Below the pieces are notes generated by a model. That model did no database searches, had not been told where the DNA came from, and saw only the letters and a program-made list of their open reading frames with translations. From Candidatus Multivoradales bacterium (GTDB lineage: Bacteria > Acidobacteriota > Thermoanaerobaculia > Multivoradales > Multivoraceae), in the NCBI GenBank assembly GCA_965223325.1, contig CBDCWI010000002.1, forward strand, positions 1,216,001 through 1,280,000: DNA of 64,000 bases. The letters are read 5' to 3'. The position numbers were made by a program, and so were the translations under genes. This document shows, piece by piece, positions 5,788-60,928 of this stretch; position 1 is the stretch's first letter, and every line of letters starts with the position of its first letter.

Positions 5788-5797
5788 CCCTCCCTAG

Positions 5798-5813
5798 AGC
5801 AACCCCCGTGCCA
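5798..5813 (-). promoter_or_regulatory. Sigma54 (-24/-12) promoter
   Basis: Minus strand TGGCACG-GGGG-TTGCT, an exact match to TGGCACG-N4-TTGCW. Confidence 0.8.
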
Positions 5814-6063
5814 GCCCGCTCCAGGCTGCAGGAAAAGGCCTCCAACCCTGTATCTTCCGCCGGTTCAACCCTTTAGAGACGGGCCTCTGGGTCGGCTCGA
5901 GGCCTCCTGGCTCCCCCTGCTTCGCCGGCGGTGCTCCAGATCGAAGCACGCCAACAAGCTGGGCACAGACCGCTCAGTTCCGGTCCGGCGCAACCGATAC
6001 ACCTGAGCTACAATACATTTAATAGTCTGCATATTTGTACTATTTCTCTCAAGGAGGGTGCCT

Positions 6064-43027: not shown

Positions 43028-43049
43028 CTGTAGCGATCCTCTCCGCGCA

Positions 43050-44315: not shown

Positions 44316-44603
44316 CAGTTGATCCTCGAGAGAGATGGGGAGCGTAGTCGCTGGGAAACAAAGGAAAGCAGGCCGGACCCGCCGCCTCGACCACTGTACC
44401 GGCGCGACCCTACGCAATGCCTTCGGTGACTCGCGACGGGCCGCGGCCGGCGCCGTTGACCTGGGCCTGCCTGGTTGAGTCCTCGGACCAGCGTATCGCC
44501 CGCAGGGGCCCTGTGTTCTGCAGTGTTCCAGCGCTGGGGCTGTACTCTGCGGGCGCACACCCCTTGGACCTCGAACCGACCTCAACGACCCGAGAGACTT
44601 CTG

Positions 44604-45746
44604 ATGACCGAACTTCCTGCGCGCCAACTCCAACTGCAGTCGACGATCACCAAGGGCGGCGAGCTCCGCCTCGAGCTCGTCGAGGTTCCCACTCCCGAGC
44701 TCCGCGACCAGGACGTTCTGGTGCGGGTCGAGGCGAGCCCCATCAACCCCTCGGACCTCGGGCTCCTCTTCGGGGTTGCCGACATGTCGACCGCCCGCGC
44801 TACCGGCACCGATCAAAAACCTGAGATCACTGCCGACGTGCCGGAGAAGGTTCTCGGCGCGATGGCGGGCCGCCTTGACCAGGCGATGCCGGTGGGCAAC
44901 GAAGGCTGCGGCGTGGTCGTGGCTACCGGCTCGGATGAAGCGGCCCAGGCGCTCCTCGGCAAGACCGTGGCAATCCTCGGCGGCGCCATGTACTCCCAGT
45001 ACCGCGCCACCCCCGCCGCCGGTTGCCTGGTTCTTCCCGATGGAACCGACCCTGCGGCCGGTGCGTCGTGCTTCGTCAATCCGCTGACCGCCCTCGGCAT
45101 GGTCGAAACGATGCAACGTGAAGGGCACAGCGCGCTGGTGCACACTGCCGCAGCGTCGAACCTCGGCCAGATGCTCCAGAAAATCTGTCTCGCCGATGGA
45201 ATCGACCTGGTCAATATCGTCCGTCGCGAAGAACAAGCGCAGGTCTTGCGCGATCTCGGAGCGAAGCACGTCTGCGACTCGAGTGCCGAGACCTTTCGCT
45301 CCGACCTCGCCCGCGCGCTCGCTCAGTCGGGCGCCACCCTCGCCTTCGACGCCATCGGCGGCGGGCGCCTGGCCTCGGACATTCTGGCGGCGATGGAGGT
45401 CGCCGCGAGTCAGAACGCCGACACCTACAGCCGCTATGGATCGACCGTTCACAAGCAGGTCTACATCTACGGCGGCCTCGACCGCGGGCCAACGGAACTC
45501 CGCCGTGCCTACGGCATGGCCTGGGGCATCGGGGGCTGGCTGCTGCCGATCTTCCTCGACCGCGTCGGTCCCGAAGTCGGTGCGCGCATGCGGCAGCGGG
45601 TTGCCAACGAACTCCACACCACCTTCGCGAGCTCCTACGCACGCGAGATCTCACTCTTCGAGGCACTCGATCTCGACAACATCGCGATCTACGGCAAGCA
45701 GGCCACCGGCGAGAAGTTCCTGGTGCGTCCCAACAAGGGACTCTGA
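44604..45746 (+). CDS. MDR-family NAD(P)H oxidoreductase (enoyl/quinone reductase-like)
   Basis: 'PINPSD', 'GNEG.G', 'VNPLTA', 'TAAASNLG'. Confidence 0.85.
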   Translation: MTELPARQLQLQSTITKGGELRLELVEVPTPELRDQDVLVRVEASPINPSDLGLLFGVADMSTARATGTDQKPEITADVPEKVLGAMAGRLDQAMPVGNEGCGVVVATGSDEAAQALLGKTVAILGGAMYSQYRATPAAGCLVLPDGTDPAAGASCFVNPLTALGMVETMQREGHSALVHTAAASNLGQMLQKICLADGIDLVNIVRREEQAQVLRDLGAKHVCDSSAETFRSDLARALAQSGATLAFDAIGGGRLASDILAAMEVAASQNADTYSRYGSTVHKQVYIYGGLDRGPTELRRAYGMAWGIGGWLLPIFLDRVGPEVGARMRQRVANELHTTFASSYAREISLFEALDLDNIAIYGKQATGEKFLVRPNKGL

Positions 45747-45747
45747 A

Positions 45748-46545
45748 GTGGAACGGCTGAGCAACTACCAGACCCTCCAGTTCGAACGCTCTGACCGCGT
45801 CCTCACCATGACGCTTCAAGGTGCCCCACCGGTGAACGGCGTCACCGAACGCATGCACGAAGAGCTCGCGACGGTGTTCTTCGACCTGCAGCGTGACGAG
45901 GGAAGCGATCTGATCGTCATGACTGGCCAGGGGCGTGCCTTCTGTGCCGGCGCTGATATGGCGTTCTTCGAGCGCATGATCGACGACCCGAAGATCCTGC
46001 GCGACATGCTGCCCGACGCCAAGCGCATCATTCATGGCCTGATCGACCTCGAGAAACCCATCATCTGCCGCATGAACGGCGCCGCCGCAGGGTTGGGAGC
46101 CAGCCTTGCTCTCCTCTCTGACATCATCGTTGCCGACGAGACGTCGAAGATCGGTGATCCGCATGTCAAGGTCGGCCTGGTCGCCGGCGACGGCGGCGCA
46201 ATCATCTGGCCACAGCTCGTCGGCATGGCAAAGGCAAAGGAGCTCCTCCTGACCGGCGACATGATCACCGCCGGCGAGGCCGCCGACCTCGGGCTGATCA
46301 ACTACGCCGTCCCGGCACCGGAGCTCGACACCAAGGTCGAGGCTCTGGCGGCAAAGGTCCTCAGTAACCCCCGCTGGGCGGTGCGTTGGACCAAAACGGC
46401 GATGAACATCACCCTCCGCGACCTCGCCAACAAGATCAACGATGCGGCGATGGCCTACGAGCTGGTGAGCAACCTCACCGAAGACCGCAAAGAGGCGGTG
46501 CGCGCCTTCATCGAGAAGCGCGGGGCCCGGCTGACCGGCGAGTAG
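45748..46545 (+). CDS. Enoyl-CoA hydratase/isomerase (crotonase) family
   Basis: 'AFCAGAD', 'KP.I...NG.A.G.G', 'GL..GDGG'. Confidence 0.9.
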   Translation: MERLSNYQTLQFERSDRVLTMTLQGAPPVNGVTERMHEELATVFFDLQRDEGSDLIVMTGQGRAFCAGADMAFFERMIDDPKILRDMLPDAKRIIHGLIDLEKPIICRMNGAAAGLGASLALLSDIIVADETSKIGDPHVKVGLVAGDGGAIIWPQLVGMAKAKELLLTGDMITAGEAADLGLINYAVPAPELDTKVEALAAKVLSNPRWAVRWTKTAMNITLRDLANKINDAAMAYELVSNLTEDRKEAVRAFIEKRGARLTGE

Positions 46546-46721
46546 CGGGCCCACACCCTGCGGGCGAGCCTTCCACGCATCGCAACAGGTGCATACTCCG
46601 CGGTGGCGACCCCGGAAACGTATGATTGAGGGGCCGGCTCGCGCAGTCGGTCCTGCCCGTTTCCGCATCCCCGCGGCCCCACCCCCTCCTCAGCCTGACT
46701 CCCAGAAGGGCCTTAGCCTCC

Positions 46722-47618
46722 TTGATTGTCTGCCAGGGACTCACCAAGACCTATCGCAACGGCCACCGCGCCCTGGCGCCCCTCGACCTGACCGTCGACC
46801 AGGGTGTCGTGGGTCTCTTGGGGCCCAACGGGGCCGGGAAGACGACTCTCCTTTCGATGCTGGTCCTGGCACTCGAACCGAGCGCCGGGACCCGGGAGTG
46901 GTTCGGCCTCGACGACCGGCCGGCGCACCACGCAACCATTCGACCCTGGATCGGCTTTCTGCCTCAGGAGATGGACCTGGTAGCCGGCCTGACCGGTCGC
47001 GAGGTCCTCTACTTCGCTGCCCGGCTGCGCCAGGTCGACTTGACGCGCCACCAACTCGACCGGCGCATCACCGGGCTGCTGGCGGCGGTCGGGCTCGAAC
47101 AAGACGGTAACCGTCGGGCCGATCACTACTCGGGCGGCATGCAACGACGACTCGGAACGGCCATGGCCCTCGTGCACCGGCCGCGCTTCCTGGTCGTCGA
47201 CGAACCCACCGCCGGCCTCGATCCTGAAGAACGGTTGCGCTTTCGCGCCCTGGTGACCGAGCTCGGAGACCGCATTCCAGTGCTCCTCTCGACACACATC
47301 GTCGAAGACATCGAGGCCACCTGTCCACGGCTGGTGATCCTCGAAGAAGGTCAGGCCATCTTCGACGATGGGCCGGGGGTGCTCTTCGAGGCAACGGCCG
47401 GCAAAGTCTGGCGCCTGCCACCCGACGCTGCCGACCGGCAAACCGACGCACCGGTCATCGGCCGTGCCAGTGACGGCGAACGGCCGTGCGACGTAGTGTG
47501 GAGCGCCGGACCGCCCGCCGGCTTCGCCGGCGACGAAGTGACATTGCTCGAGCCGAGCCTCGAACAGGCCTATGCGGCCTGGCTCGCCGCCAGCAACGCC
47601 CGGAAGGTGGCGGCATGA
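46722..47618 (+). CDS. ABC-2 type ATP-binding protein
   Basis: GPNGAGKT, YSGGM, VDEPT, STH. Confidence 0.93.
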   Translation: MIVCQGLTKTYRNGHRALAPLDLTVDQGVVGLLGPNGAGKTTLLSMLVLALEPSAGTREWFGLDDRPAHHATIRPWIGFLPQEMDLVAGLTGREVLYFAARLRQVDLTRHQLDRRITGLLAAVGLEQDGNRRADHYSGGMQRRLGTAMALVHRPRFLVVDEPTAGLDPEERLRFRALVTELGDRIPVLLSTHIVEDIEATCPRLVILEEGQAIFDDGPGVLFEATAGKVWRLPPDAADRQTDAPVIGRASDGERPCDVVWSAGPPAGFAGDEVTLLEPSLEQAYAAWLAASNARKVAA

Positions 47619-50407
47619 ACAGCCATCGCTCCAGCCCTTCAATGCTGTGGCCCCTCTTGCGGCTCGAGTGGCTCCTGCAGCTCCGTTCGCTGCGCTTTCG
47701 CTTTGCGGTCGCGCTCTCTCTCGCCCTGGCGGCTTTCCCGCCGCTCCTCCTCCACCTGAACCTGGCAGAGCAGCGCTGGCAGTTCGGACCGACGAGCTTT
47801 CTCACCGAGACCCAGGCGCTTCTGCCACTGCTTTCGGTTCTGTTGACCGTCGCAATCGTCGGCAACACCGCCCGCCGCCCCGGCATGACGCAACTCTTGA
47901 TCTCTTCGCCGATTTCAGTCGCGGGCTACTCGCTGACCAGGCTGTTGGCGCAAATCGCCACCGTCCTGCCGCTCACGTTGCTGGCTCTTCTCCCGGCGCT
48001 CGGCCTGGGCATTTGGCATTTCGGTACCGGCGACCTACCGCTGCGCACGGCTCTCTTGCTGTGGCTCTTGGAGATCGCACCACGTGTTCTGATCGTTGCG
48101 TCTGCCTGGCTGGGCCTGGTTCTCCTGGTGCAGAGTGAGGTGGCGGCCTTCTTCCTCGCCTGGCTCGGTGGGCTGACGGGCGAGGCGCTCCTCGACCGGC
48201 TGACCTTCCCGCTCGGCGTTCGCCTCAGCGAGTCAACGAGCTGGATCGGCATTCAGGAGTTCGGCCAGTGGGTGACAGTCCACTTCTTCATGAACGACAA
48301 CGAGCGGGCATGGCTCACGTTGCCGGCCACCGAGGCCCCGATCGTGCTCGACGCGGCCACCGCCGAGAGCCTGCTGCCCCTCCTCTTGCCACTCGCGGGG
48401 GCGCTCTTGGCTCTCTTGATCGGCATGAGCCGCATGGGTCGAACGACGCCCGACACGGGAGTGCGCCCGATTCCGCCGGATCATCCATTGCGCACCTTTC
48501 TTCAGCGGGCGCGCGACGTCCGCGACGCGATGCGCGCCGACGCCGGGCAGACGACCCGCGATCGCGCCCTTCGTTGGTCCGCTGCGGCCCTGGCCATCGT
48601 GATCGTCTCGATCGCGGTCCTGCGCGCCCGCGCGGTGGTCGATGCCGCAAACCGTCGCTACAACGCCATGGTTGCACCCGCGATCACCGCGACCGACTCC
48701 GCGGCTCGCATCGAGAGGTGGTCCGTCGTCGGCAGCCTTGGACCCCGCGGCCAGCTTTCTACGACGACCACCGGCGTCGTCACCAACACCGGCAATCGAG
48801 CTCTCTTAGCCCTGGGGTTCGAGCTCACCGACGGCGTCCGGGTCGACGCGGTCACGGCGACGGTCGCCGGCCAGACGCGCACAATCACCAAAGAGCGCCA
48901 GTTCGACCGCTTGGGTCTGCTCCTCGAACCCGCCCTCGATCCCGGCGCTACGCTCGAGCTCGAGGTCAAGACTTCGGGCCGGCCGCGCCATCTTGTCCTT
49001 CCGATTCGTGGATCTCTGGCGATCCGTTGGAAGCGCCATCTCGAGGCACGCTTTCCCCGCCATCTCGTCGCCGCCGGGAGCGCTCGTTTTGGCTCGGGGA
49101 TGAGTCCCGAAAGAACCGAACTCGGTCTTTCCGACCTGTCTCCACAGCCTCGCTTCACGACCTGGGAACTCACCCCTCCACCCGAGTTTCCCGGCGGACC
49201 CGGCCGGACCGTTCCGCCAGAGGAGGGACCGAGAGAGGTCGATCTGCGCTTCGATCTCGAGGTGCCAGACACCTGGACGCTCGTCGACTCGTGCGGGCAG
49301 GTGGCAAACGCCGGCCGGCTCCGATCGAGCTGCCGACAGCAGCCTGCGACCTGGCAGCTGGTGGGTGGCCGCGACTATGAACTCCACTCCTCCGCGGACG
49401 GGCAAGTCAAAGCGGCGCTCCTCGCTCCGCATGCGGAAGGTGCAGGTACTGTCTTGTCTGCCATGTCGCGGGTGGCTGAACTGTCGCGCGAAGGAAGAGG
49501 TGGCTTCGCTCCGATCGAGCGCATCACCCTCTGGGAGTACACGCCTCCCTTCGGCGCGCATCCCCAAACGGCACTAGCCGGCTTCCTCAGAAACCGTGAC
49601 GACAAGCCGATCATCAAGGGTCGACTGGTGTGGTTGCCCGAAGCATCGATCCTTCGTCCAGAGCCAATTGCCGCCGAAGCGCTCGCCGCGGCGATCCTCA
49701 TACAGGACGTCGAACTGCCCGAAGCCGCCACCGAAGCGGACGGCCGGGCACTGCGGGCTCTGCTTCGCACCTGGGTCCTCGAGCGCCTGGGCGTCGAACG
49801 GGAGAGTGCGGTGGTGTTCGCCAGCGGCTGGCAGTCCTGGAGCCTCTATCAACCGATGCTCGGAGCTGACCCCTACGACGGCCACTACTGGGGGCAACGC
49901 GTCCCAGCGCTTCTGGTTGACCTCAAGCACCGGGTCGGCGGCGCTGCACTCGACCGGGCCTTTAGGACCACTCTCCTCGAGCCGGAAGCCGCCGCTGCAC
50001 TCCCGGGCCCGGTGAGCGTACGCGGTTTGATCGAAGCGATCGCGCGCGAGTCGGGCAAAGACCTGTCGCAGTACTACGCCGACTACATCGCCCGCGGGCA
50101 CCTGCCGAGACTCATTCTGGCGAACGTCACCTCACGCCCCGAACGCGGTGTCTGGCGGGTCGAAGGCCAGCTGCGCAACGAGGGCCGTGGGCAGTCCGAG
50201 TGCCCCATCGTCGTGCAGACAGTGGCTGGCCCTGCGAGCATCAGAGTCACCGTCGACGGGTCCAGCCAGACGTCCTTCGAACTCGAGACCGATGGGCGCC
50301 CGCACACCGTCGTCGTGGACCCTGAAGAAACCTGTCTGCGTTTTCGCGCCTGGCGGCAACGTCGTCAGGAACGAGCTGACCTGGTCGGCGGAGATGAGGG
50401 CACATGA
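47615..50407 (+). CDS. ABC-2 permease fused to a degenerate M1 aminopeptidase-like extracytoplasmic domain
   Basis: About 6-7 N-terminal TM helices, then a soluble region with an M1-like 'L...VG...D.A.R' helix and 'P..VVVDP' C-terminus; no HExxH. Confidence 0.6.
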   Translation: MNSHRSSPSMLWPLLRLEWLLQLRSLRFRFAVALSLALAAFPPLLLHLNLAEQRWQFGPTSFLTETQALLPLLSVLLTVAIVGNTARRPGMTQLLISSPISVAGYSLTRLLAQIATVLPLTLLALLPALGLGIWHFGTGDLPLRTALLLWLLEIAPRVLIVASAWLGLVLLVQSEVAAFFLAWLGGLTGEALLDRLTFPLGVRLSESTSWIGIQEFGQWVTVHFFMNDNERAWLTLPATEAPIVLDAATAESLLPLLLPLAGALLALLIGMSRMGRTTPDTGVRPIPPDHPLRTFLQRARDVRDAMRADAGQTTRDRALRWSAAALAIVIVSIAVLRARAVVDAANRRYNAMVAPAITATDSAARIERWSVVGSLGPRGQLSTTTTGVVTNTGNRALLALGFELTDGVRVDAVTATVAGQTRTITKERQFDRLGLLLEPALDPGATLELEVKTSGRPRHLVLPIRGSLAIRWKRHLEARFPRHLVAAGSARFGSGMSPERTELGLSDLSPQPRFTTWELTPPPEFPGGPGRTVPPEEGPREVDLRFDLEVPDTWTLVDSCGQVANAGRLRSSCRQQPATWQLVGGRDYELHSSADGQVKAALLAPHAEGAGTVLSAMSRVAELSREGRGGFAPIERITLWEYTPPFGAHPQTALAGFLRNRDDKPIIKGRLVWLPEASILRPEPIAAEALAAAILIQDVELPEAATEADGRALRALLRTWVLERLGVERESAVVFASGWQSWSLYQPMLGADPYDGHYWGQRVPALLVDLKHRVGGAALDRAFRTTLLEPEAAAALPGPVSVRGLIEAIARESGKDLSQYYADYIARGHLPRLILANVTSRPERGVWRVEGQLRNEGRGQSECPIVVQTVAGPASIRVTVDGSSQTSFELETDGRPHTVVVDPEETCLRFRAWRQRRQERADLVGGDEGT

Positions 50408-51147
50408 GTCGGCAAGCCCGGAGCTCTCTCGGCAGCGTGCCGACGAGAGTGCAGGCCGTTCTCTGGCGCGCCTGGTACGACGTCGACCTCCTCCTCGGCC
50501 GACGCATCTGGCTGCTGCTCCTGGTCGACGGCATGCTGATCCTCTCCGGAATCCAGACCGCCGTCGACGCCGACGGCGACCAGCAAGCCTGGGTTCTGTA
50601 CCGCCAGACCGTGCTCATTCCCGCTTTCGTTCTCATGCTGCCCGCCCTTTCGGCGGTGCTTGCCCTCGAACGGCGGGCGGGGTCTTTAGAACTGGCTCTC
50701 TCCTCGGTCTCGGTAACGCGCTACGTCGCCCGTCGCGTGTGGCCTCTACCTGTGTTCTTTATCGTGCAGTCGCTTTTGGTGATCCCTTTCCTCCCCCACC
50801 CGCGCCGCGCCTGGCTCCTGCTCGTCGCCCTGCACGCGATCGCCGTCATTCTCAGCCTGGTGGCGGTGGTGGTCTTTTGGATCGTACGCATCGAGACTGC
50901 GGGAGGCGTGCTGGTCGCGGCGCTGGCGAGCTCGATCGCGCTCTCGACATTCGTCTTCAGGAGCCCGTTTCCACCGCGCACCGTCTTGACATTCGACCGA
51001 CTGCGACTGCCCCTACTCGAGAACGTCTCGACGCACCTGGTTGAGACTTTGTGGGGAATCGTCGTGCTTCTCGCGACCAGCCTGGTCTTGTTGATCGCTG
51101 CACGGTGGCGACTCCGACGACCGCATCGCCTGGCAGGCCATCACTGA
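50404..51147 (+). CDS. ABC-2 permease-like membrane protein
   Basis: About 6 TM helices, 'ERRAGSLEL.L' coupling motif; ATGA overlap. Confidence 0.7.
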   Translation: MSRQARSSLGSVPTRVQAVLWRAWYDVDLLLGRRIWLLLLVDGMLILSGIQTAVDADGDQQAWVLYRQTVLIPAFVLMLPALSAVLALERRAGSLELALSSVSVTRYVARRVWPLPVFFIVQSLLVIPFLPHPRRAWLLLVALHAIAVILSLVAVVVFWIVRIETAGGVLVAALASSIALSTFVFRSPFPPRTVLTFDRLRLPLLENVSTHLVETLWGIVVLLATSLVLLIAARWRLRRPHRLAGHH

Positions 51148-51207
51148 TCGACGGGCCCTCCCCTGCCCCATGGACTCTTCCTACCCGCTAACACCGAGAA
51201 CCCGAAC

Positions 51208-52419
51208 ATGAACCACCTTCAACGACCGCAACAGCGGGCTGCCCCCATCGGGGCGACCGGACTGGTTTGCGTTCTCTGCCTCACCGCGTGCGTAACGCCC
51301 GAGTCCCCACCGGTCGAACCGACAGCGGTCGCCGTGACCTCGGAAGTGGTGGCCAGGAAGCCGTTTCGCGCCGCCATTGACCTACTCGGTGAAGTCGAGG
51401 CTCACTCGCTCACACCCATCACCGCACCCATCGCCGGCGAGCTCGAACTGGCCGCGCGCTTTCGCAACGGGTTCGAAACGGGAGCCAGCGTCCGGCGCGG
51501 TGAGGTGCTGGCAACCATCTCCAACCTCGACCTACGCCTGGAGGTCGACCGCGCCACACTCGAAGTGTCCACCAAGGACGCCGAACTCGAACGGACCCAA
51601 GCTGGCGTTGATGCAGGAGTCGTGCGCGACGTCGATTTGGAGCGGGCGCGAGACGAGGCGAAGATCGCCCACGCGCAGCTCGAGGCTGCGCGAGCACGTC
51701 TAGAACGTCGTATCGTGCGCTCGCCGAGAACCGGATGGCTGCGGGTCGCCGAAACGATCCACTCGGCAACTGAAGTCTCGGCCGGGCAGGTCTTGGCAAG
51801 CGTCGCGGAAGGTGGACCCCAGCGCATCGTCGCGTGGGCCAGTGCCTCGGACCTGCCGCGTCTTCGCTCGGCGCTCGACGACCCCTCGACCGTTGTCGAG
51901 GCTCGGCTTCCAGGCCGAATCGAGCCGATCGCCAGCGGGCGGTTGGTCGAAGTCGCCCGCGACCTCGACCAGCACGGCGCGGCGCGGATCGGCGCAGTAG
52001 CCCTCGAGTCCTACCTGCTTCCGCCAGCCGGTCAGGGGCTCGAAGTGCGGGTCCTCATCGGCGAGGCCGAAGACAGCCTCACGGTGCCCGAAGACGCCCT
52101 GGTCAAACGCTCGGGCATCTCCTCGGTCTGGGTCCTCGAAACCACGGGCGATCACTTCCGGGCGAACCATCGCATCGTCACCCTCGGCGGCCAGAACGAC
52201 GGCACCTGGCAGGTCGTCGACGGGCTGGCCGAAGGCGAGCGCATTGCTGTGCGTGGGGTGGAGTTGCTCAGCGACGGTGGACTCGCCATTCGCGACGACC
52301 GTCGGCGGACGGCCTCGGGTCGCTGGGTGAGCAGCGACGACTCACCGCCGGAATCCGCGCGCACAGGCCAGGACGAAAGTGAACCCGGCGACCAGGAGCA
52401 GGAGACGGCCGACCCTTGA
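51208..52419 (+). CDS. RND periplasmic adaptor (MFP) lipoprotein
   Basis: Lipobox LTAC, lipoyl halves, helical hairpin, 'VP..A' and 'GL..G..I'. Confidence 0.88.
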   Translation: MNHLQRPQQRAAPIGATGLVCVLCLTACVTPESPPVEPTAVAVTSEVVARKPFRAAIDLLGEVEAHSLTPITAPIAGELELAARFRNGFETGASVRRGEVLATISNLDLRLEVDRATLEVSTKDAELERTQAGVDAGVVRDVDLERARDEAKIAHAQLEAARARLERRIVRSPRTGWLRVAETIHSATEVSAGQVLASVAEGGPQRIVAWASASDLPRLRSALDDPSTVVEARLPGRIEPIASGRLVEVARDLDQHGAARIGAVALESYLLPPAGQGLEVRVLIGEAEDSLTVPEDALVKRSGISSVWVLETTGDHFRANHRIVTLGGQNDGTWQVVDGLAEGERIAVRGVELLSDGGLAIRDDRRRTASGRWVSSDDSPPESARTGQDESEPGDQEQETADP

Positions 52420-55400
52420 CGACCCGCAAGTCAGAGGACAGGGAAAACGATCCGGCGCCCCCCGGACCACCGCTAGAGGGCCCGGTGCGGCGACTGGTGT
52501 CGGCCTGCCTCGAGCGCCCGACCGCCGTCACCATCGCCAGCCTTGCGTTGGTGGCACTCGGCGCTCTCTCACTCCTTCGACTGCCGGTCGCCCTCTTGCC
52601 GCAGCTCGAACGACCCGCCCTGGTGGTCTTGCTCGAGGACCCGGAAGCCGGCCGGGAGGATCTGCTCCTGCGCGCCGTCGAGCCGCTCGAGCGCCGTTTG
52701 ATGACGCTCCCGGGAGTCTTGCGCGTCGAAAGTTGGGTCGGCGACGGTACAGCGCGCCTGGTCACTGAAGCCGAGTGGCAAACCGATCCTGACACCTTGC
52801 GCATCGACGCAGAGCGCCGCCTCGCCGGAATCGATCTCGGCAACGCACGGCGCACCATCACGATGCGCTCGGGCGACTCCGAACCGGTTCTCTCGATTGT
52901 CATCACCGGCGGCCGTTCGGCGATCCACCGCGCACGATTCACCGACCGCACCCTGGTTCCCGAGTTGGCGACCAGCCGTGGCGCCGGCGACCTGCACCGC
53001 ACGGGCGGTGCCACCCTGCGGCCCGTGGTTCGGCCCCATGCGGCAGCTCTTGCCGCCAACGACCTGTCCGCCCACAGCATCGCACTGCGACTCGAGAGCA
53101 TCGGAGAAAGCCGGCCGATCGGCCGCATCCGCGAAGGAGGCGAACGCAGAGCGCTCGAGTTCGGAGAGACGGTGCGTACTATCGAAGAACTCGCGCGCGT
53201 CCGCGTGTACCGCGAAGGCGAGATGAGCGAGGGGCCCGGTGTCGCTCTCGGAGACCTTGCCCAGGTGGCGCTCGAGTCGGTGCGTGAGGACGGCCTCTAT
53301 CGCTACCGCGGACGCGACGCGGTCCTGCTCGAGCTCTGGCGAGGCCCCGGCCAGAACGCGGTGCGACTGGCGCGCGACGCCAAACAGAAGGTCGCCTCCC
53401 TCAAAAGTGCGGCGAACGCCGAAGGGATCGAGCTGCAGACGATCGACAACGCCGGCGACGAGGTGGAGCAAGCACTGCTGGCGCTCGGCGGAGCGGCGCT
53501 CCTCGGCCTGTTCTTCGCCACCGTCATTCTGCGTTTGCTCCTCGGCGCCTGGCTCCCGACCCTGGTTCTCGCGGTCATCATTCCGGCGTCTCTCGCGATT
53601 ACCTTTGGCCTCTTCCTGCTCACCGGCACGACGCTCGACATCGTGGCGCTCGCTGGCCTGGCGCTGGCGATCGGACTCCTGGTCGACAACTCGATCGTGG
53701 TGCTCGAAGCGATCGCGGTGACAAGTCGCCGAGGAAAGCAGGAAGTAGGCGATGAAGCGGACGCTGGTGTCAGTGAGCTGGGAACACAGGCCACGGTACG
53801 AACGGTTGTCGCGACCGGCGTCGGAGGAGTTGCGGCGGCATTGGTGGGCAGTTTTCTCACCACCGCTGCGATCTTCATTCCCCTCATCTATCTACGCGGC
53901 CTGGCTCGCGCGTTCTTTGGCGTTCAGGCCTTCGCCATCGTCGGAGCGCTCCTGGTCTCGCTCCTCTTGTCGTTGACTCTGCTTCCCGTCATCGTTTCGG
54001 TCTTCGGTCGAGGTCGTCGATCGGCTCCTCGCGCCCTCCTTCGATCGGCGGTTGAGAGCGGGCGTCAACCGCTGCGCCCCCTCTTTCTGCGCCTTCTCCG
54101 CGCCGCGCTCAGAACACCGCGAACTACCGTGGTCTTCGCCTCGCTCGTCGCCCTTGTGACCGGTGGTCTCGCGTACCTGACCCTACCGCGCGCCTTGATG
54201 CCTGGCGGACCGGCCCAGGGTCTCGAGGCCACCCTCACCTTCCCCGGTGACCTCGACGAGGACGCGGTGCTCGAGCGGATGCTCGAACTCGAGGCGAACC
54301 TGGTGGGCAACGCCAACCATCCCTGGTCGTTGCGCTGGCGGACCGCTGGCCTCGCCGATCCCGACCCCGACGAACGGGAGAATGGCCTCCTCCGTCTGGT
54401 GGGAGAACCGGACAACCGTGAGTTTGACGAGTTCATCGCCCGTACCCGCGAAGCGCTCCTCCGAACGCCTGGCCTCGACTCGAGCCTCAGGCGCCGGGGT
54501 AGCGCCCTCGAGCGCGCCTTCGATCGCAGCCTGGCCCGCTTCGAGATCGATGCCAGCGCGCCCACACCGGTCAGCGCTCGCCAGTTGGCCGACCGCGTTC
54601 TCGAGGCCGACGCGACCCAAGCGGGAGGAGCCCGGCTCGTCGAGCGTTACCCACCCACACCGCATCGCACGCTCCACCTCCGCCCAGGTGTTCTCGGCAA
54701 GGTCGACGCGGTGAGTATCGAGCGCCAGGTGGGAGCGAGCCTCGGCGGCATCGAAGCCGGTCGTCTCGACGGCGACGCCTATCCCGATGCCGACGCCGCC
54801 ATCCTCCTCGAGGCTACCGAACCAAGAGATCCAGCACGCCTCCCGGTGGTCACCGCAAGCGTGACCCAGGGAGGCGAGCGAGCGGTGCCGCTTGGAGTCC
54901 TGGCGGTCTTCGAAGACCGACGCTCACCTGCACCGTGGTTCAGAGTCAACGGCCGGCCGTCGGTGCGCATCGAGCAGGCCTCCGGCGCACCGCTCCATGA
55001 GGGAGCGCTCGAGCTCCGGCCGGACGAAACCCTCCGGCCAACCGGAACCGCCTTCGAAACGCGGCGTTCCTTCAGACAGCTCGGCCTCGCTCTGGGACTC
55101 GGCCTGGTCCTCATGTGGCTAACCCTCGCGGCGCTTCAGGAGTCGCTCGTTCTGCCCCTCGCGACCCTCTTGACCCTCCCGATCGCAATCGCCGGCGGCC
55201 TGACGGCGCTTCTGGTCTCTGGGCAGACCCTCAACGTCGCGTCGATTCTCGGACTGGTGCTGTTGTCTGGGATCGTGGTCAACAACTCCATCGTACTTCT
55301 CTTTCGAATGGAGTCGCATTGGCGAGGCGGTGCCAGCGCGCCCGAGGCCGCGCTCCTAGGAGCACGCGAGCGCTACCGCCCCATCCTCATGACCTCGGCC

Positions 55401-55556
55401 ACCACGGTCGCAGCCCTCCTGCCCTTGGCCATCGCCGGTGCCGGAATCGAGGCATCGCTCGCTGTCGGCGTCATCGGTGGGCTGCTCGCCGGCTTCATCG
55501 GCTCGCTGATCGTCTCGCCGGCGACCTGGGCACTGCTGCGCCGGGCGAGTCAGTAG
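52416..55556 (+). CDS. RND efflux permease (AcrB/MdtBC-like)
   Basis: 'RP', 'LPV.LLP', 'AIGLLVDNSIVV.E', 'GIVVNNSI', 'R.RPILMT'. Confidence 0.88.
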   Translation: MTTRKSEDRENDPAPPGPPLEGPVRRLVSACLERPTAVTIASLALVALGALSLLRLPVALLPQLERPALVVLLEDPEAGREDLLLRAVEPLERRLMTLPGVLRVESWVGDGTARLVTEAEWQTDPDTLRIDAERRLAGIDLGNARRTITMRSGDSEPVLSIVITGGRSAIHRARFTDRTLVPELATSRGAGDLHRTGGATLRPVVRPHAAALAANDLSAHSIALRLESIGESRPIGRIREGGERRALEFGETVRTIEELARVRVYREGEMSEGPGVALGDLAQVALESVREDGLYRYRGRDAVLLELWRGPGQNAVRLARDAKQKVASLKSAANAEGIELQTIDNAGDEVEQALLALGGAALLGLFFATVILRLLLGAWLPTLVLAVIIPASLAITFGLFLLTGTTLDIVALAGLALAIGLLVDNSIVVLEAIAVTSRRGKQEVGDEADAGVSELGTQATVRTVVATGVGGVAAALVGSFLTTAAIFIPLIYLRGLARAFFGVQAFAIVGALLVSLLLSLTLLPVIVSVFGRGRRSAPRALLRSAVESGRQPLRPLFLRLLRAALRTPRTTVVFASLVALVTGGLAYLTLPRALMPGGPAQGLEATLTFPGDLDEDAVLERMLELEANLVGNANHPWSLRWRTAGLADPDPDERENGLLRLVGEPDNREFDEFIARTREALLRTPGLDSSLRRRGSALERAFDRSLARFEIDASAPTPVSARQLADRVLEADATQAGGARLVERYPPTPHRTLHLRPGVLGKVDAVSIERQVGASLGGIEAGRLDGDAYPDADAAILLEATEPRDPARLPVVTASVTQGGERAVPLGVLAVFEDRRSPAPWFRVNGRPSVRIEQASGAPLHEGALELRPDETLRPTGTAFETRRSFRQLGLALGLGLVLMWLTLAALQESLVLPLATLLTLPIAIAGGLTALLVSGQTLNVASILGLVLLSGIVVNNSIVLLFRMESHWRGGASAPEAALLGARERYRPILMTSATTVAALLPLAIAGAGIEASLAVGVIGGLLAGFIGSLIVSPATWALLRRASQ

Positions 55557-55557
55557 C

Positions 55558-58500
55558 GTGAGGCAAACCAACCGAAAGCCTGCCGGGCAGAATCGGAGCC
55601 TTTCGGCGATTCTCATTCTCCTTTCCCTCTGGATCATCGGCGGAGTCGCCGCCACCGAGCTCCAACCGAGCTGGCTGCCAACGGCCGGTGGCGGCGACCT
55701 GCGCATCAACCTCACGCTCAGAAACGCCCTGCCCGTCGAAGTGGTCACCGAACGCTTCGTCGTGCCCATCGAGGCGGCGACGCGCGCCGCCGGAGGAATC
55801 CAGGAAGCGGTCGGTAGAGTTTCGACACACGGCGCTGATCTCCAGCTGCGCCTGGCGCCCGCACCCGCGACCGGGATCCCGAGGAGCACAACCACCGCTG
55901 GCGAGCGCAAACTCGCACGCCTCGAAACCGAGCTTTTGCCTCTGCGCGAAACACTGCCCGAAGGCGCGCGACTCGAGGTTTCAGCCGGCAGTCGCACGCG
56001 CAGCTTCGCGCTCGCACTGTGGATCGATGACGACGAGGCGGCCATCACCTCGCACCGCGATCGTTTGCGCGCCCTGCCGGAGGTGCGCCACGTCGATCTA
56101 GCGGGCGTTGGAAACACGCGTGTCGAAATCACGCCGCGACCAGAGTCGAATGACCCGGAGTCGAGGCGCGCCATAGAGACAGCCGCTAACCACGTCGCTC
56201 GCAGCGTCGACCTCGGGACCTATCGCACAGAGACCGGGCAGGAGATTCCGCTACGCACCGGTAGCCCCGCCTCCAGGAACCAGACCCTGGGTGAGACCGT
56301 CATCGCTGCTGGAGGCACGGCCCCGCCCATGCGACTCGACGCGATCGCCGATCTCGCCATCAACCGTCGCGCCGCCGACTTCCGCGTGCGCGCCGACGGA
56401 GAGGCCGGACGAGCCCTCCTCATCCATGGCCAAGACGGCGGCACACAGCGCGATGCGGCGGGCGGCCCGCTGGCCCTGCGGCGCGCGCTCGACCGTTACC
56501 GCGCCACGCACGACCTGCTGGAGAACAGCCGCATTCTCTTCGACGACGGTGGGCCGCTGCGCGACTTTCTAGGCCGCGGCTTGACGGCCCTTGTTGTCCT
56601 CGCACTCGTTCTCCTCGTCGCTGGTTGGTCGTCGCTCGGACCGCGAGCGGGACTCTGGTGGGCTTCCTCGCTCCCCACCGCCATGGCTCTGGTTGCGACC
56701 GCAGCCCGACTTTTGGACTTCGAACTGACGATCGTCACCATGCCGACCATCCTCGTGGGACTTCTCGCGGGGCCGCTGGCCCACTCGCTTCTCATGATGG
56801 CGAGGTCCGACGAAGGTGGGAGGGGCAGTCGCTGGCTCTGGTTCTTCGCCGCCTCGAGTCTCAGCCTGGTGGCCATCCGTTGGCTCGGAGGACCTCTGGC
56901 GCCAATCCTCGAAGGGCCGGCGCGCGTGTTCTGGACAACCACTACGCTGGCCGCGTTGGGCGGTACGGGAACAGGCCTCTTCGCGCGCCGCGCTGCAACG
57001 CGGGGTGGGCAGCGGCCCAAGCTGCGACCGACGGCACAGCGCTTCGCCCGCACCATCCTGCGCCTCAACTTGCGCCACGCACCAGCGGTCGTAGCGGTCA
57101 CCCTTCTACCGGTCTGGTTCGCTGTCGGCTGGCTCTTGCCCACCCTCACGCCGCGGCCAACCAGCCTGGCTCCTCCGAGCGACGACCTGGTGATCGAGGT
57201 CATGCCTCCGCATGGGTACACGGTCTCGGAAACGGAACAGTTGGTCGCCAATATCGAAGCCCATCTACAAGCGAAGTTCAAGCAGCGCCCACCTGGTGGG
57301 ACGCCCGAAAACGACGGTGCAACCTGGTGGTCGTGGCTCGGCGCCTCCCAGGCGCGCATTCTCATCGACCTCCACGAGGACTTGGGGCGGGGCGAGCTGG
57401 AACGCCGCGCGCTGCGCCTCGAAAGCGAGCTCGCGGTCCTCCCGGCGATCATAGAAGTCAAGAGTCTGACCGACGGTGCGGCGGCATCGGCCCCGGCCGT
57501 GCGTTTCTCGGGCAGCCTGGCGAGCGAGGCCGAGACCGACGACGACGCCTTCAGCTATCGCGTCCTCTTGAGCGCCACCCGCCTCGAGGCGCTGCGCCGC
57601 GCCGAGCGCCTCATCACTCGCGGCCTGTCGACACGCGGCATTCCGCCGCGCTCGATTCACACCGCCTGGAGCACTCCCGAAACCATCGTTCGCCTCGAAC
57701 CGATCACCGCCGGTGGTCTCGGGGCCAGCGAAGCGGCGGCCCTCGATCTGCTCGCCGAACGCAGCCGACCGCCGGTCAGCCGACCGCTGGCGGGTCAACG
57801 TGACATCGAGTGGACGCTTCGCCGGCCCGGCACTCCGACTCACGTCGACCCAGAACAGCTACCGCCGCCTGAACTCGAAACACTCCGCCGCCCCGAGGTC
57901 ACCACCCTCGGGCCAATCGCTCCGCTCGATGCCTTTCGCCTCAGACGGACCCTACGCGAGCCCATGGTTCTGCGCGAGAACGGCCGCTACGTGCTACCTG
58001 TCGATATCGCGCTTTCCGGTAGCGAATCAAAGCGCCGAGCGCTGCAAAGAGACACCCACCGCTGGCTGGGACAAAGGGCAGGCTCACTCGGCGTCCACAT
58101 CGAACGTCCGCGCATGGGGCGCTGGGAGAGGGCACTGGAGCACCAGCGCCTCTTGTCTCTCCTGCTCTTTCTCCCGGTTCTGGCGCTGGTCCTCGCCGGC
58201 ATCCGGCTCGACTCCTCTACTCTCGCCCTCTTCTCAGGCGCAGCGTTGGCGGTGGCGATCTCGGTTGCGATCCTGGCGTTGCGCGCCGGCAGTGGCCAGG
58301 CCTCCGCGATGAGTCTCTTCGCCCTCGCGACGGGGATCTCGCTGTCGTTGCCGATGCTCCTCGAGCACCTGGCGCGCGGCGCCGATGCCTCTCGGGTTCA
58401 CCAACCGTATGGCTGGCGCGGTGACCTCCGCGTCTCCGGTTTCTCGATTGCCGCGCTGCGACGACTGCTCCAAAACATCGTGCCGTTCGCCTGCGTGGCG

Positions 58501-59778
58501 ATGTTGCCGCTTCTGCTGGCTGTCCTGGCAGGTGCCGGCCTCGAGAGAACTCGCGAACCGTGGGTGGAACCGCTCTACACCGCTGGCTTCGCGGCAACCG
58601 CTCTGATGCTGACCGCGTTGGCGCTGACACCGGCGCTCCTGGCTCTTCGTCGCGCCGCGATCTCGAAAGCGAGGACCAGTAGAGGCGCCCGCTCAGAAGA
58701 ATGGCAGAAACTGACCTCGCCGCCGCCCTGGCGCGAGCCGGCCCTCGGCAAGGCGGGCGACGGCGGCGCTCCGGAGATCGAAGTCCGGCACCTGACCCGG
58801 GTGTACCGACCGCCGACAGTCAGACTGCATCGCAAGATCAGCGATGGCCGGCCGCCCGACCCGCGCCAGGCGCGCGAGGGTTTCAGGGCGCTCTATGACC
58901 TGAACTTCGAACTCGGTCCCGGCATCGTGGGCCTGCTTGGTCCCAACGGAGCCGGCAAGACGACTCTTCTCCACCTCCTGTGCGGCCTGGCACATCCAGA
59001 CCGTGGTCGCTTGATGTACCGCGGCGTGACCGTCACACCGCTCAACCTGACCGCCTATCGCCGACGCATCGGCTACCTTCCCCAAACGTTCAACGCACCT
59101 GCCCGGGTTTCGGTTGAGCGCTTTCTCGACTATCAGGCGCTCGAACTCGGCATTCACGATCGGAGCGAGCGCCGGCGGATCATCGACGGGTTACTCGAGC
59201 GGGTCGAGCTCGAACAGGCGCGCACCACCGAGGTCCGAGAGCTGTCCGGTGGTATGCGAAGGCGTGCTGGCGTAGCGCGAGCACTGATCGGTGACCCTGG
59301 TGTTCTGATCGTCGATGAACCGACCACCGGGCTCGACGTCGACTCGCGTCGCAAGTTGCGCCAGACCCTGCTCGAGGTCGCCGACCAGCGCATCGTCTTC
59401 TTCTCGACCCACATCGCCAGTGACATTCAAGCCGCCGCGGTTCGCATTCTGGTTCTTGGGGCTGGTCGACTGCTCTTCGACGGTTCGGCTGAAGAGCTCA
59501 AGCGACGCGCCGGGAGCCGGGTAGCCGTTGCCACGACTGACGACGTCGCGCTGCGTGCTCTCCTCACCGAATACCGCGTGACAACCCGGGTGCGCACGGC
59601 CGACGGAGTGAAAGTGCGCTTCGTGCTCGCACCAGGCCAACCGCTGCCTCCCGGCGCGGTTGCCGAGAAGCCGACTCTCGAGGAGGCCTGCGTCGCCCTC
59701 ATGGCGGAGCAACTAGACGGTGCGTTAGAGCTCGAGCCCGAGCGCGCCACCTCGGTCTTGTGGCCTTCGGCCAGCTAG
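55558..59778 (+). CDS. Degenerate RND permease fused to a C-terminal ABC ATPase
   Basis: RND-like two-repeat topology over about 1070 aa, then GPNGAGKT, LSGGM, VDEPT and STH in the same frame. Confidence 0.8.
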   Translation: MRQTNRKPAGQNRSLSAILILLSLWIIGGVAATELQPSWLPTAGGGDLRINLTLRNALPVEVVTERFVVPIEAATRAAGGIQEAVGRVSTHGADLQLRLAPAPATGIPRSTTTAGERKLARLETELLPLRETLPEGARLEVSAGSRTRSFALALWIDDDEAAITSHRDRLRALPEVRHVDLAGVGNTRVEITPRPESNDPESRRAIETAANHVARSVDLGTYRTETGQEIPLRTGSPASRNQTLGETVIAAGGTAPPMRLDAIADLAINRRAADFRVRADGEAGRALLIHGQDGGTQRDAAGGPLALRRALDRYRATHDLLENSRILFDDGGPLRDFLGRGLTALVVLALVLLVAGWSSLGPRAGLWWASSLPTAMALVATAARLLDFELTIVTMPTILVGLLAGPLAHSLLMMARSDEGGRGSRWLWFFAASSLSLVAIRWLGGPLAPILEGPARVFWTTTTLAALGGTGTGLFARRAATRGGQRPKLRPTAQRFARTILRLNLRHAPAVVAVTLLPVWFAVGWLLPTLTPRPTSLAPPSDDLVIEVMPPHGYTVSETEQLVANIEAHLQAKFKQRPPGGTPENDGATWWSWLGASQARILIDLHEDLGRGELERRALRLESELAVLPAIIEVKSLTDGAAASAPAVRFSGSLASEAETDDDAFSYRVLLSATRLEALRRAERLITRGLSTRGIPPRSIHTAWSTPETIVRLEPITAGGLGASEAAALDLLAERSRPPVSRPLAGQRDIEWTLRRPGTPTHVDPEQLPPPELETLRRPEVTTLGPIAPLDAFRLRRTLREPMVLRENGRYVLPVDIALSGSESKRRALQRDTHRWLGQRAGSLGVHIERPRMGRWERALEHQRLLSLLLFLPVLALVLAGIRLDSSTLALFSGAALAVAISVAILALRAGSGQASAMSLFALATGISLSLPMLLEHLARGADASRVHQPYGWRGDLRVSGFSIAALRRLLQNIVPFACVAMLPLLLAVLAGAGLERTREPWVEPLYTAGFAATALMLTALALTPALLALRRAAISKARTSRGARSEEWQKLTSPPPWREPALGKAGDGGAPEIEVRHLTRVYRPPTVRLHRKISDGRPPDPRQAREGFRALYDLNFELGPGIVGLLGPNGAGKTTLLHLLCGLAHPDRGRLMYRGVTVTPLNLTAYRRRIGYLPQTFNAPARVSVERFLDYQALELGIHDRSERRRIIDGLLERVELEQARTTEVRELSGGMRRRAGVARALIGDPGVLIVDEPTTGLDVDSRRKLRQTLLEVADQRIVFFSTHIASDIQAAAVRILVLGAGRLLFDGSAEELKRRAGSRVAVATTDDVALRALLTEYRVTTRVRTADGVKVRFVLAPGQPLPPGAVAEKPTLEEACVALMAEQLDGALELEPERATSVLWPSAS

Positions 59779-59824
59779 CCGACCCCAGGAAAGGCTGAGG
59801 AGCATGAGCCGCCCTTGCCGCTTC

Positions 59825-60844
59825 TCAGCGCCCGAGGACGATGTCGGCAACTCGGCGGAGAGTCTCGGGATCGCGGGTGCCGACCAGCAGCGTGGTGACC
59901 AGGCTGTCGTCCCAGGCGGCAAGCCGATCGCGGATTCTCTCGGGCGAACCCACCAGTGAGATCTCGTCGGCGAACTCCGTCGGCACGAGGGCTGCCGCCT
60001 CTTGGCGGCGGCCCGACATGAAGGCGTCCATGATCTCTTCTGCGAGCTTGGGATAGCCCATGCGCGCGAAGAGTTCGCGATGGAAGTTGCGCTTCTTCGA
60101 GCCCATGCCACCAACGTAGAAACTCACCCGCTCCCGCACGCTCATGAGCGCCTTGTCGACGTCGTCCTCGAGGACGATGGGAACGCCGTAGAAGATCTCG
60201 AACCCCTTCTCCATTCCCACCAGCGAATCTCTATAGACCTCGGGTCGGTAAGGCGTGTAGTAGAGCGGGATCCAACCGTCGCAGAGCTCGACCGCCAACG
60301 CAACGTTCTTCGGCCCTTCGGCTCCGAGAATGATGGGCAGGTCGGCTCGCAATGGGTGCACGATGGGCTTGAGCGGTTTGCCCATTCCCCACGAGCCCTC
60401 GCCGGTGTAGGGCAGCGGGTAGTGCTCGCCGTGGTTCTTGACCGGCGCTTCGCGCCGCATGACCTGGCGAATGATCGAAACGTACTCGCGAGTGCGTGAG
60501 AGAGGCTTCGCGAACGGTTGCCCGTACCATCCCTCGACGACCTGCGGCCCCGAAACTCCCAGCCCGAGGATGACCCGGCCACCGCTCAGATGATCGAGCG
60601 TGAGGGCATGCATCGCGGTCGCCGTCGGTGTGCGCGCCGAGAGCTGCGCGATCCCAGTACCCAGGCGAATGCTGGAGGTCTGGGAACCGATCCACGAAAG
60701 TGGCGTGAAAACGTCGCTACCCCAGGCCTCGGCGGTGAAGACCGAAGTAAAGCCAAGCTCCTCCGCCACGACGGCAAGATCGACAAAACCGGGAGTCGGT
60801 CCAGCGTCCCAATAACCGAGGGCGAGTCCGAGTTCGAGTGCCAT
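59825..60844 (-). CDS. LLM-class F420-dependent oxidoreductase
   Basis: 'AEAWGSD', 'Q.SARTP', 'GLGVSGPQVVEGWYG', 'GAEGPKNV'. Confidence 0.88.
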   Translation of the reverse strand: MALELGLALGYWDAGPTPGFVDLAVVAEELGFTSVFTAEAWGSDVFTPLSWIGSQTSSIRLGTGIAQLSARTPTATAMHALTLDHLSGGRVILGLGVSGPQVVEGWYGQPFAKPLSRTREYVSIIRQVMRREAPVKNHGEHYPLPYTGEGSWGMGKPLKPIVHPLRADLPIILGAEGPKNVALAVELCDGWIPLYYTPYRPEVYRDSLVGMEKGFEIFYGVPIVLEDDVDKALMSVRERVSFYVGGMGSKKRNFHRELFARMGYPKLAEEIMDAFMSGRRQEAAALVPTEFADEISLVGSPERIRDRLAAWDDSLVTTLLVGTRDPETLRRVADIVLGR

Positions 60845-60928
60845 CGCCGCCAAGGTAGCACAGCGAGCGAGCCGGCAGGAGCACCTGGCGATGTGCGCCC
60901 TGGCGGGTGATGTGGGCGCGGTGTGCTC

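Follow-up and report, generated by a model that had tools for sequence, protein, structure and literature searches.

Six adjacent genes, g1 to g6, in a 64,000-nt stretch of the genome of a Candidatus Multivoradales bacterium (contig CBDCWI010000002.1, positions 1,216,001–1,280,000; the whole stretch is hereafter the window) probably encode one envelope export system. It would consist of two modules, an ATP-binding cassette (ABC) transporter and a resistance-nodulation-division (RND) pump, tied together by g6, a single chain in which an RND-like body continues into an ABC ATPase domain. We put the probability of this reading at about 0.55. Its firm base is the identity of the parts, the fusion itself, the conservation of the set and the co-occurrence of its members; from these we infer that the two ATPases pair, that g5 and g6 form a mixed RND assembly, that substrate is passed from one module to the other, that the channel is supplied in trans, and in which direction transport runs. 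The single composite machine that a preliminary description proposed for this locus is well supported by comparative genomics, namely by the conserved unit, the co-occurrence of g2 and g6 and a second, interleaved arrangement of related genes.

All six open reading frames (ORFs) were found on the + strand at 46722–59778, where the preliminary description had placed them, and its family assignments were upheld, by Pfam and NCBIfam profiles for g1, g4, g5 and the C-terminal part of g6, by hhalign for the N-terminal part of g6, and by fold comparison for g3 and the M1-like part of g2. None of g2 (930 aa), g3 (247 aa) and residues 1–1050 of g6 is matched by Pfam or NCBIfam. The gene junctions are also as described, overlaps or a 1-nt gap everywhere except at g3/g4. 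The g1/g2 and g2/g3 junctions are ATGA overlaps, g4/g5 is a TTGA overlap, a single nucleotide separates g5 from g6 (TAG-C-GTG), and the 60 nt between g3 and g4 are the only intergenic gap of the operon. Coordinates and domain boundaries are collected in Table 1.

An RND-like body fused to an ABC ATPase

The g6 product has 1406 residues in total. Pfam finds no domain on its body in the window, yet the homologs P0002–P0005 carry PF00873 (ACR_tran), and hhalign matches the body to the g5 family with a probability of 100% (E 8.9e-44, 938 columns). The N-terminal part of g6 is thus a diverged RND body. Between this body and the ATPase the window protein has a long linker; only ~25–35 residues lie between the last transmembrane (TM) helix and the first ATPase strand in most orthologs. 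Such a short tether means that the ATPase must sit beside the RND body, and in the proposed particle the ABC-2 subunits would consequently have to lie against that body as well.

The other RND protein, g5, has MdtB as its best solved relative (E 1.3e-108, aligned over 16–1022), which provides a reference for the residues of the charged relay. Aligned MdtB has an Asp-Asp pair in TM4 and a Lys in TM10. The g5 family does not match this Asp-Asp relay, having Asp followed by Asn or Ser in TM4 (23/23 sequences) and Asn in place of the MdtB Lys in TM10 (27/27); the RYRP motif of TM11 is kept in the g5 orthologs. The same variant is common to 15 of 15 related RND proteins, whether unfused, canonical RND-ATPase fusions or RND-OEP fusions, so g5 belongs to a variant subclade. 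That the Asn-for-Asp/Lys pattern might mark a loss of proton coupling in g5 was considered and rejected, since the variant is clade-wide. The g6 body differs further. Its TM4-equivalent stretch holds no acidic residue in any of 11 family members, and it is therefore unlikely, as far as its residues tell, to translocate protons itself; the canonical RND-ATPase fusion of a second phylum, described below, has Asp at that TM4 position. The polar residues of TM10 and TM11 that g5 keeps are lost in the g6 body as well.

Among 1.84 billion cluster representatives (clusters at 50% identity), a profile built from the RND-like part of g6 matched 451 at E ≤ 1e-30, and a distinct block of about 80 of these belongs to the window's family. 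The full length of the RND-like profile is covered by 41 representatives. In 39 of them the chain continues C-terminally for another 313–373 residues; three of these 39 tails were scanned, and all three are ABC_tran. From the generic RND matches just below the block, 13 proteins of 1441–1594 aa were scanned, 11 of them canonical fusions of ACR_tran with ABC_tran and the remaining two fusions of ACR_tran with OEP. In the ESM Atlas, ABC_tran occurs with ACR_tran in 15 of the 30 nearest clusters; those fusion clusters that were shown have 64–143 members, most commonly from Acidobacteriota and Bacteroidota. A word-indexed search with the g6 profile gave one further family member and generic RND proteins, a result that reflects the limit of the index and not rarity. 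Judged by these matches, the RND-ATPase fusion is widespread, and the window's family represents a degenerate branch of it.

Two further chain designs were met in these searches. P0020–P0026, P0125 and P0163 are single chains of ~1483–1517 aa that combine a full ACR_tran RND permease with an OEP (TolC-type) domain; some of them are named 'AcrB/outer membrane protein TolC' by a source, and they have the same Asp-Asn / Asn relay variant as g5. In the canonical RND-ATPase fusions P0109, P0116, P0119, P0126, P0132 and P0168 (1565–1594 aa), ~260–280 residues without a Pfam match at the threshold applied lie between ACR_tran and ABC_tran, a spacer far longer than the linker of the window's family.

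Two separate, co-inherited ATPases

The nearest NCBIfam models of g1 are DrrA, GldA and NodI (TIGR01188 drrA, 163 bits, under the model's cut-off). Its start is a TTG at 46722, and orthologs align from residue 1. The motifs that the preliminary description quoted for the two ATPases (GLLGPNGAGKTT, SGGM, DEPT.GLD, STHI and P(S/T)LE) are present in both translations and invariant in the ortholog alignments. Walker A, the Q-loop, SGGM, Walker B with the catalytic Glu, and the H-loop His are invariant in g1 (seven orthologs), and the same catalytic motifs are invariant in the g6 ATPase domain (12/12 sequences).

We placed both in a tree of 130 ATPase domains that included 12 g1 orthologs and 24 g6 domains. 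The g1 orthologs form one clade (SH-aLRT 99) and the g6 domains another, apart from g1 (SH-aLRT 100); both fall within a 53-row clade (SH-aLRT 99). The two ATPases, which had been described as looking paralogous, are on this tree separate, co-inherited ortholog groups with intact catalytic motifs, and they are best taken as old, separately conserved partners and not as recent duplicates. Two ATPase ortholog groups match two ABC-2-type membrane subunits, which argues for one composite machine. Both ATPases end in a PxLE(E/Q)A motif, which we take, as a lead only, to resemble the C-terminal motif by which DrrA-type ATPases contact their ABC-2 permease. A complex prediction for the membrane part of g2, g3, g1 and the g6 ATPase domain as partner, run without controls, scored 0.30 against a mark of 0.32 and speaks neither for nor against binding.

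The membrane subunits g2 and g3

The AlphaFold model of g2, for which six orthologs served as input, has a mean pLDDT of 74.7; in it, six or seven helices at the N-terminus precede a large C-terminal domain. The top Foldseek matches of the model are M1 aminopeptidases only (IRAP, ERAP1/2, puromycin-sensitive aminopeptidase and EryP; E 8.5e-16, 9–14% identity). VIA-align gives the same answer, with ERAP1 at Z 20.6 (root-mean-square deviation 5.6, 444 residues aligned, model range 355–919) and LTA4 hydrolase at Z 19.2 (366 residues aligned). M1 zinc aminopeptidases combine an N-terminal beta domain with a thermolysin-like domain, and have a zinc site formed by HExxH and a Glu, and the exopeptidase motif GxMEN. 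The six g2 orthologs and the second-phylum homolog conserve neither HExxH nor GxMEN, the ortholog alignment holds no invariant His, and one ortholog has a lone, unconserved HDRQH. The M1-like domain of g2 has no zinc site and is thus not a peptidase; by its motifs it appears to be a dead one. An Arg-rich loop (274–323) is followed by a seventh hydrophobic helix (324–342), and C560 and C573 are invariant. From the loop (by the positive-inside rule), the seventh helix and the two Cys, the pseudo-M1 domain is predicted to be periplasmic.

The membrane part of g2 may be of the ABC-2 type. The nearest named ESM Atlas clusters, which are matched by language-model features, are ABC2_membrane + Peptidase_M1 fusions, and ABC2_membrane_3 and ABC2_membrane_2 match g2 orthologs weakly (E 0.24–0.72, in two and one of six, respectively). 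Pfam does not detect PF01433 in g2 or its orthologs. A word-indexed protein search with g2 found itself only, which is again a limit of the index and not evidence of rarity. Profile positions ~700–910 of g2 (window ~49800–50350) alone match ORFs of 377–2002 aa in 52 further genomes of the phylum; these 52 include two unpublished genomes, G189 and G088, on which nothing else rests. A search with the g2-like protein of the second phylum likewise gave only partial matches (residues ~645–896) in 61 of 201 genomes of another phylum and no match in five named Bacteroidota genomes, so that this query did not detect the operon there. Such C-terminal partial matches are presumably ordinary M1-type proteins with the same sub-domain.

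No Pfam family matches g3 in any of six orthologs, and its assignment comes from its fold. When the g3 model was compared with 48,161 chains by VIA-align, the top 20 were all membrane subunits of ABC transporters (Z 12.9–7.9), aligned over about 180–218 residues; they include ABCG5/8, ABCA4, ABCG2, NosY, CcmB, PmtCD, Wzm, KpsM, LptF/G and an Mce permease. Foldseek returned the same families with weak E-values. Between g3 and the membrane part of g2, hhalign found no sequence-level link (probability 2%).

Conservation of the unit

With the RND-like part of g6 as query, a homolog was found in seven of 41 related genomes, the window's own included. In a sample of 301 genomes from across the phylum, five genomes, all of one class, have g6 homologs (E ≤ 1e-20), and exactly those five have full-length g2 homologs. 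The order g1-g2-g3-g4-g5-g6 is kept in all seven genome loci with enough context (G001, G010, G025, G030, G031, G249 and G109), which come from the same genus, family and order and from a second order of the class. Ortholog identity across this conserved order is merely 24–56%. Its presence in seven of seven related loci is not chance. A gene order that is not kept elsewhere, which the preliminary description had named as a refutation, is thus not what was observed. A 5.6-kb contig adds an eighth locus, where g6 follows g5.

A metagenome scan that used a four-sequence alignment returned 19 loci. In 18 of them g5 lies directly 5' of g6, with each gene that fits on the contig in the window's order, and four of the loci hold the complete six-gene set. 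The 75 flanking ORFs are of varied families, none recurring beyond local synteny, and this lack of a conserved neighbour marks these six genes as the unit; nor do these flanks point to a substrate. SRP54/ffh stands directly downstream of the unit in three loci (L101:14606–15943, L110:11235–12572 and L112:9502–10911), probably by shared ancestry of the contigs and not as a functional link.

A second, interleaved arrangement

Gene neighbourhoods of RND-ATPase fusions were compared in two lineages. The preliminary description had allowed that similar gene sets may exist in other phyla, and related parts were indeed found in a second phylum, in a different order, traced from locus L009 (47% G+C) to genome G330. 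The G330 operon runs adaptor (499 aa), ATPase (293 aa), ABC-2 permease (285 aa), RND (1101 aa), g2-like protein (922 aa), RND-ATPase fusion (1437 aa) and OEP (555 aa). Its ATPase is 40% identical to g1, its ABC-2 permease matches PF12679 above cut-off, its g2-like protein matches the g2 family by hhalign (probability 98.6%, 782 columns), and its fusion is canonical (ACR_tran 561 bits, plus ABC_tran). The seven genes stand in one order in eight of eight loci (G330 and seven further). Of the 35 second-phylum genomes, 25 have the g2-like gene. The arrangement intersperses ABC with RND genes, and each permease gene adjoins an ATPase-bearing gene. The six-gene order of the window and this interleaved order, with its OEP gene included, thus present the parts list in two gene orders. 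A glutamine amidotransferase flanks the operon in three of seven fetched loci and in the founder locus, and a sulfatase in two of the seven and in the founder locus; these recurring flanks look like synteny within the lineage and do not hint at a substrate.

The outer-membrane channel

The preliminary description had spoken of an export operon with no outer-membrane channel. This holds at the locus, where neither an OEP/TolC gene nor a recognisable regulator is found in the flanks (41933–63999), in line with what had been said of adjacent genes. It does not hold for the genome, which has about ten OEP genes, and the claim is better put as a channel not encoded in the locus. When the OEP and RND listings of the genome were compared, four OEP loci had no RND match nearby, three on contig 2 (near 182.8, 1302.5 and 4022.4 kb) and one on contig 1 (near 1763.7 kb); because such TolC-type genes exist, the channel is probably supplied in trans. 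The nearest OEP gene (G000, contig 2, 1302495–1303721), ~22 kb past the window end and with no RND match near it, is a candidate trans channel. In the second phylum an OEP gene lies within the operon in 8/8 loci.

Proposed working and alternatives

In the composite reading, module 1 would be a fully heterodimeric type-V (ABC-2) transporter, with g2 and g3 as membrane subunits, g1 and the C-terminal domain of g6 as ATPases, and a zinc-less M1-fold chamber carried by g2 in the periplasm. Module 2 would be an RND pump in which g5 acts with the RND-like body of g6 and has the lipoprotein g4 as its adaptor; it would dock to a TolC-type channel encoded elsewhere. Driven by ATP, the ABC module would take a substrate from the cytoplasm, or out of the inner leaflet, and bring it into the periplasmic M1-like domain, from which the RND/adaptor/channel module would carry it across the outer membrane. 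If the RND trimer is mixed and holds a single g6, it would offer exactly one ATPase domain for pairing with g1. A bolder extension of this reading, which we hold only tentatively, would make the locus a new class of machine that draws on two energy sources within a single particle. A type-V ABC transporter would be coupled to an RND tripartite pump through the fusion subunit, ATP and the proton gradient would drive successive steps, the dead M1 chamber would serve as transfer station, and the broader fusion would represent a widespread, unrecognised transporter family.

Several points weigh against the composite reading. Two copies of g1 together with g2 and g3 would be enough for a complete ABC-2 transporter, leaving the ATPase of g6 unexplained, and we infer the pairing of g1 with that ATPase. 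The ABC-2 nature of the membrane part of g2 is less well shown than that of g3, coming as it does from weak Pfam matches and language-model neighbours. The small permease of the second phylum matches the g3 family with an hhalign probability of 2%, so that the two are linked by family and fold only; in sequence, their resemblance is limited to a loop motif after the second helix. All carriers in the window's phylum belong to one class, and the co-occurrence counts are therefore not independent events. Of the 41 representatives that cover the full profile, the two exceptions P0031 (a 43-residue tail) and P0052 (cut inside ABC_tran) have no full ATPase tail; they may be contig-end truncations. 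No OEP gene adjoins a window-type locus (0 of 75 flanking ORFs; 26 related loci). In metagenome locus L108 (8.1 kb), the g6 homolog at 2725–6627 has an S8 subtilase upstream and neither g5 nor g4. L108 is the sole synteny exception of the 19, and has a CarboxypepD_reg-domain gene downstream on the opposite strand.

The alternative that survives best, and that we still consider unlikely, has two independent pumps in one operon, (g1)2 + g2 + g3 and g4 + g5 + g6, with the ATPase of g6 as a regulatory or dimerising appendage off the ABC-2 permeases. Gene order in the window lends itself to such a division, since g1-g2-g3 (ATPase, permease, permease) is the usual complete ABC-2 layout and the 60-nt gap falls exactly between g3 and g4. 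The second phylum, however, mixes its ABC and RND genes instead of keeping two blocks, full-length g2 and g6 homologs share the same five of 301 genomes, and the retention of every catalytic motif in the g6 ATPase (12/12) is unexpected of a purely structural appendage. An ATPase domain moreover needs a partner and RND pumps are trimeric, so three fused domains could not pair symmetrically.

Slightly less probable again is an ATP-driven RND-like machine, in which the g1/g6 ATPase pair would mechanically drive the g6 body and thereby g5, replacing proton coupling, with g2 and g3 as a coupling scaffold and not a pathway. The relay residues would fit, in that the g6 body has neither the TM4 acidic residue (11/11) nor the TM10/TM11 polar residues that g5 keeps, and g5 itself has one of the two Asp, and not the Lys, of aligned MdtB; the short tether between RND body and ATPase would fit as well. 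Yet the single-Asp, Asn-for-Lys pattern of g5 recurs in 15/15 other RND proteins of the clade, unfused ones too, the canonical RND-ATPase fusions keep that Asp, and no docking site for ABC ATPases is known on RND folds.

The last alternative is an envelope-building device in place of an exporter to the medium, in which the ABC-2 module would extract a lipid, a lipid-linked polymer or a lipoprotein from the inner membrane and the RND/adaptor part would deliver it to the outer membrane without a TolC-type duct, much as the RND lipid carriers HpnN and MmpL3 and the ABC systems Lpt and Lol might suggest. We regard it as the least probable of the three: the missing OEP gene next to window-type loci, the mostly lipid or glycolipid transporters among the structural relatives of g3 (ABCG5/8, ABCA4, ABCA3, ABCG1, Wzm, KpsM, LptF/G and the Mce permease) and the presence of a g2-like gene in 25/35 second-phylum genomes, which fits a housekeeping role there, are outweighed by the OEP gene that ends the second-phylum operon (8/8 loci), by g4 being a standard RND_mfp adaptor above the family cut-off, and by a distribution in the window's phylum (5/301) too patchy for an essential envelope pathway.

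Relation to known systems

MdtABC is a heteromeric RND pump, MdtB2C with the adaptor MdtA. The window resembles it in having an adaptor gene followed by two adjacent, diverged RND genes, and MdtB is the best solved match of g5; by analogy with MdtBC, g5 and g6 may form a mixed assembly. It differs from MdtABC in that one of the RND paralogs, which no longer has the relay Asp, ends in an ABC ATPase, and in that an ABC-2 transporter is also encoded in the operon.

ABC transporters that work with adaptors are a second point of comparison. The MacAB-TolC type joins an ABC transporter, a membrane-fusion adaptor and an outer-membrane channel (consulted text of PMC8277102), and YbhFSR is an ABC-type system with an adaptor, treated in PMC7190983 (consulted text). 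As in MacAB-TolC, DevBCA and YbhGFSR, where an outer-membrane channel is used or thought to be used, the ABC transporter of the window is encoded with an adaptor. Those three systems have no RND subunit, however, and MacB has a fold of its own, in contrast to the type-V ABC-2 fold of g3. We know of no member of the MacAB, DevBCA or YbhGFSR type with an ATPase fused to an RND protein.

For g2, the closest catalogued family is TCDB 3.A.1.145, ABC-2 permeases with a C-terminal M1 peptidase, which was entered in 2013 from Myxococcus xanthus Q1D520 without a known function (PMC3924187) and whose type NCBI names 'ABC transporter permease/M1 family aminopeptidase'. Like it, g2 has a C-terminal M1 fold by its predicted model, behind a membrane part that, by language-model features, may be of the ABC-2 type; unlike it, g2 has no PF01433, HExxH or GxMEN, has seven predicted TM helices instead of 13, and stands in an RND operon. 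NosDFY(L) offers a parallel in which an ABC-2 permease (NosY matches g3 at Z 11.6) works with a large periplasmic domain that handles cargo. There the periplasmic partner is, unlike g2, a separate beta-helix protein, and the Nos system has no RND protein, adaptor or outer-membrane duct. NosDFY moves copper or sulfur species.

How inner-membrane transporters cooperate functionally with RND tripartite pumps is treated in PMC4338810, judging by its consulted text. The proposed machine would share with such cooperation a two-stage export, one transporter acting over the inner membrane and the RND pump clearing the periplasm. In the known cases the transporters are separate and unlinked, whereas the fusion protein and the conserved operon suggest a physical complex here. 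A literature search, with supplementary files outside its scope, found nothing on RND-ATPase fusions or on this operon, including in the consulted text of the tripartite-pump review PMC8277102. The operon appears never to have been studied before, and only the permease-M1 fusion is already catalogued (TCDB 3.A.1.145).

Textbooks present ABC and RND transporters as examples of two distinct principles of energy coupling, by ATP and by the proton gradient. If the composite reading is true, the operon would be the first example from nature in which both are combined in a single machine. It would also be an experimental handle on the hand-over of substrate from an inner-membrane transporter to a pump that clears the periplasm, and it gives a context, and hence a testable role, to the large unexplained family of ABC-2 permease-M1 fusions. 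The architecture is not limited to one genome: in public data the window's family alone accounts for dozens of clusters at 50% identity, with canonical fusions in addition, and in the second phylum the operon is present in most genomes, as the count of the g2-like gene indicates.

Features of the locus and its surroundings

Table 1. Genes and domains of the operon (positions are those of the window).
Feature	Position	Strand	Evidence
g1, free ABC ATPase, 298 aa, ABC-2/DrrA-NodI-GldA type	46722..47618	+	PF00005 82.9 bits
g2, 930-aa permease; residues 1-345 multi-TM part, 350-924 M1-aminopeptidase fold without zinc site	47615..50407	+	
pseudo-M1 domain of g2, residues 350-924, predicted periplasmic	48662..50386	+	predicted model
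g3, 247-aa six-helix permease, ABC-2 (type V) fold	50404..51147	+	predicted model, pLDDT 82.1
g4, periplasmic adaptor (MFP) lipoprotein, 403 aa	51208..52419	+	TIGR01730 RND_mfp 111.6 bits (cut-off 94.9)
g5, RND permease, 1046 aa, non-canonical relay	52416..55556	+	PF00873 (ACR_tran) 373 bits (cut-off 28)
g6 N-terminal part, degenerate RND-like module, residues 1-1050	55558..58707	+	hhalign against the g5 family
g6 linker, conserved PPxW motif	58708..58896	+	P1055 and W1058 invariant
g6 C-terminal part, second ABC ATPase with C-terminal PxLEEA motif	58897..59778	+	PF00005 100.9 bits, residues 1114-1257

The adaptor g4 has the lipobox LTAC in the window, and a Cys after the hydrophobic stretch is clear in six of seven orthologs and doubtful in one. 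The G+C content of the operon (66–69%) is similar to that of its surroundings. A scan of 46300–60100 gave no promoter-like site and ten terminator-like sites, uninformative against 7.4 ± 3.3 in shuffles. The flanks contain ORFs at 43050–45617 (−), 59825–60853 (−), 45118–46545 (+), 41933–43234 (−) and 62737–63999 (−), which comprise two luciferase-like monooxygenases, an enoyl-CoA hydratase, a zinc alcohol dehydrogenase and a family-1 glycoside hydrolase. Two of the flank ORFs (855 aa and 475 aa) have their Pfam domain in the C-terminal part only, so their listed starts are probably too far upstream. A long ORF at 45211–46668 (−), which belongs to no family, looks like an antisense artefact of high G+C.

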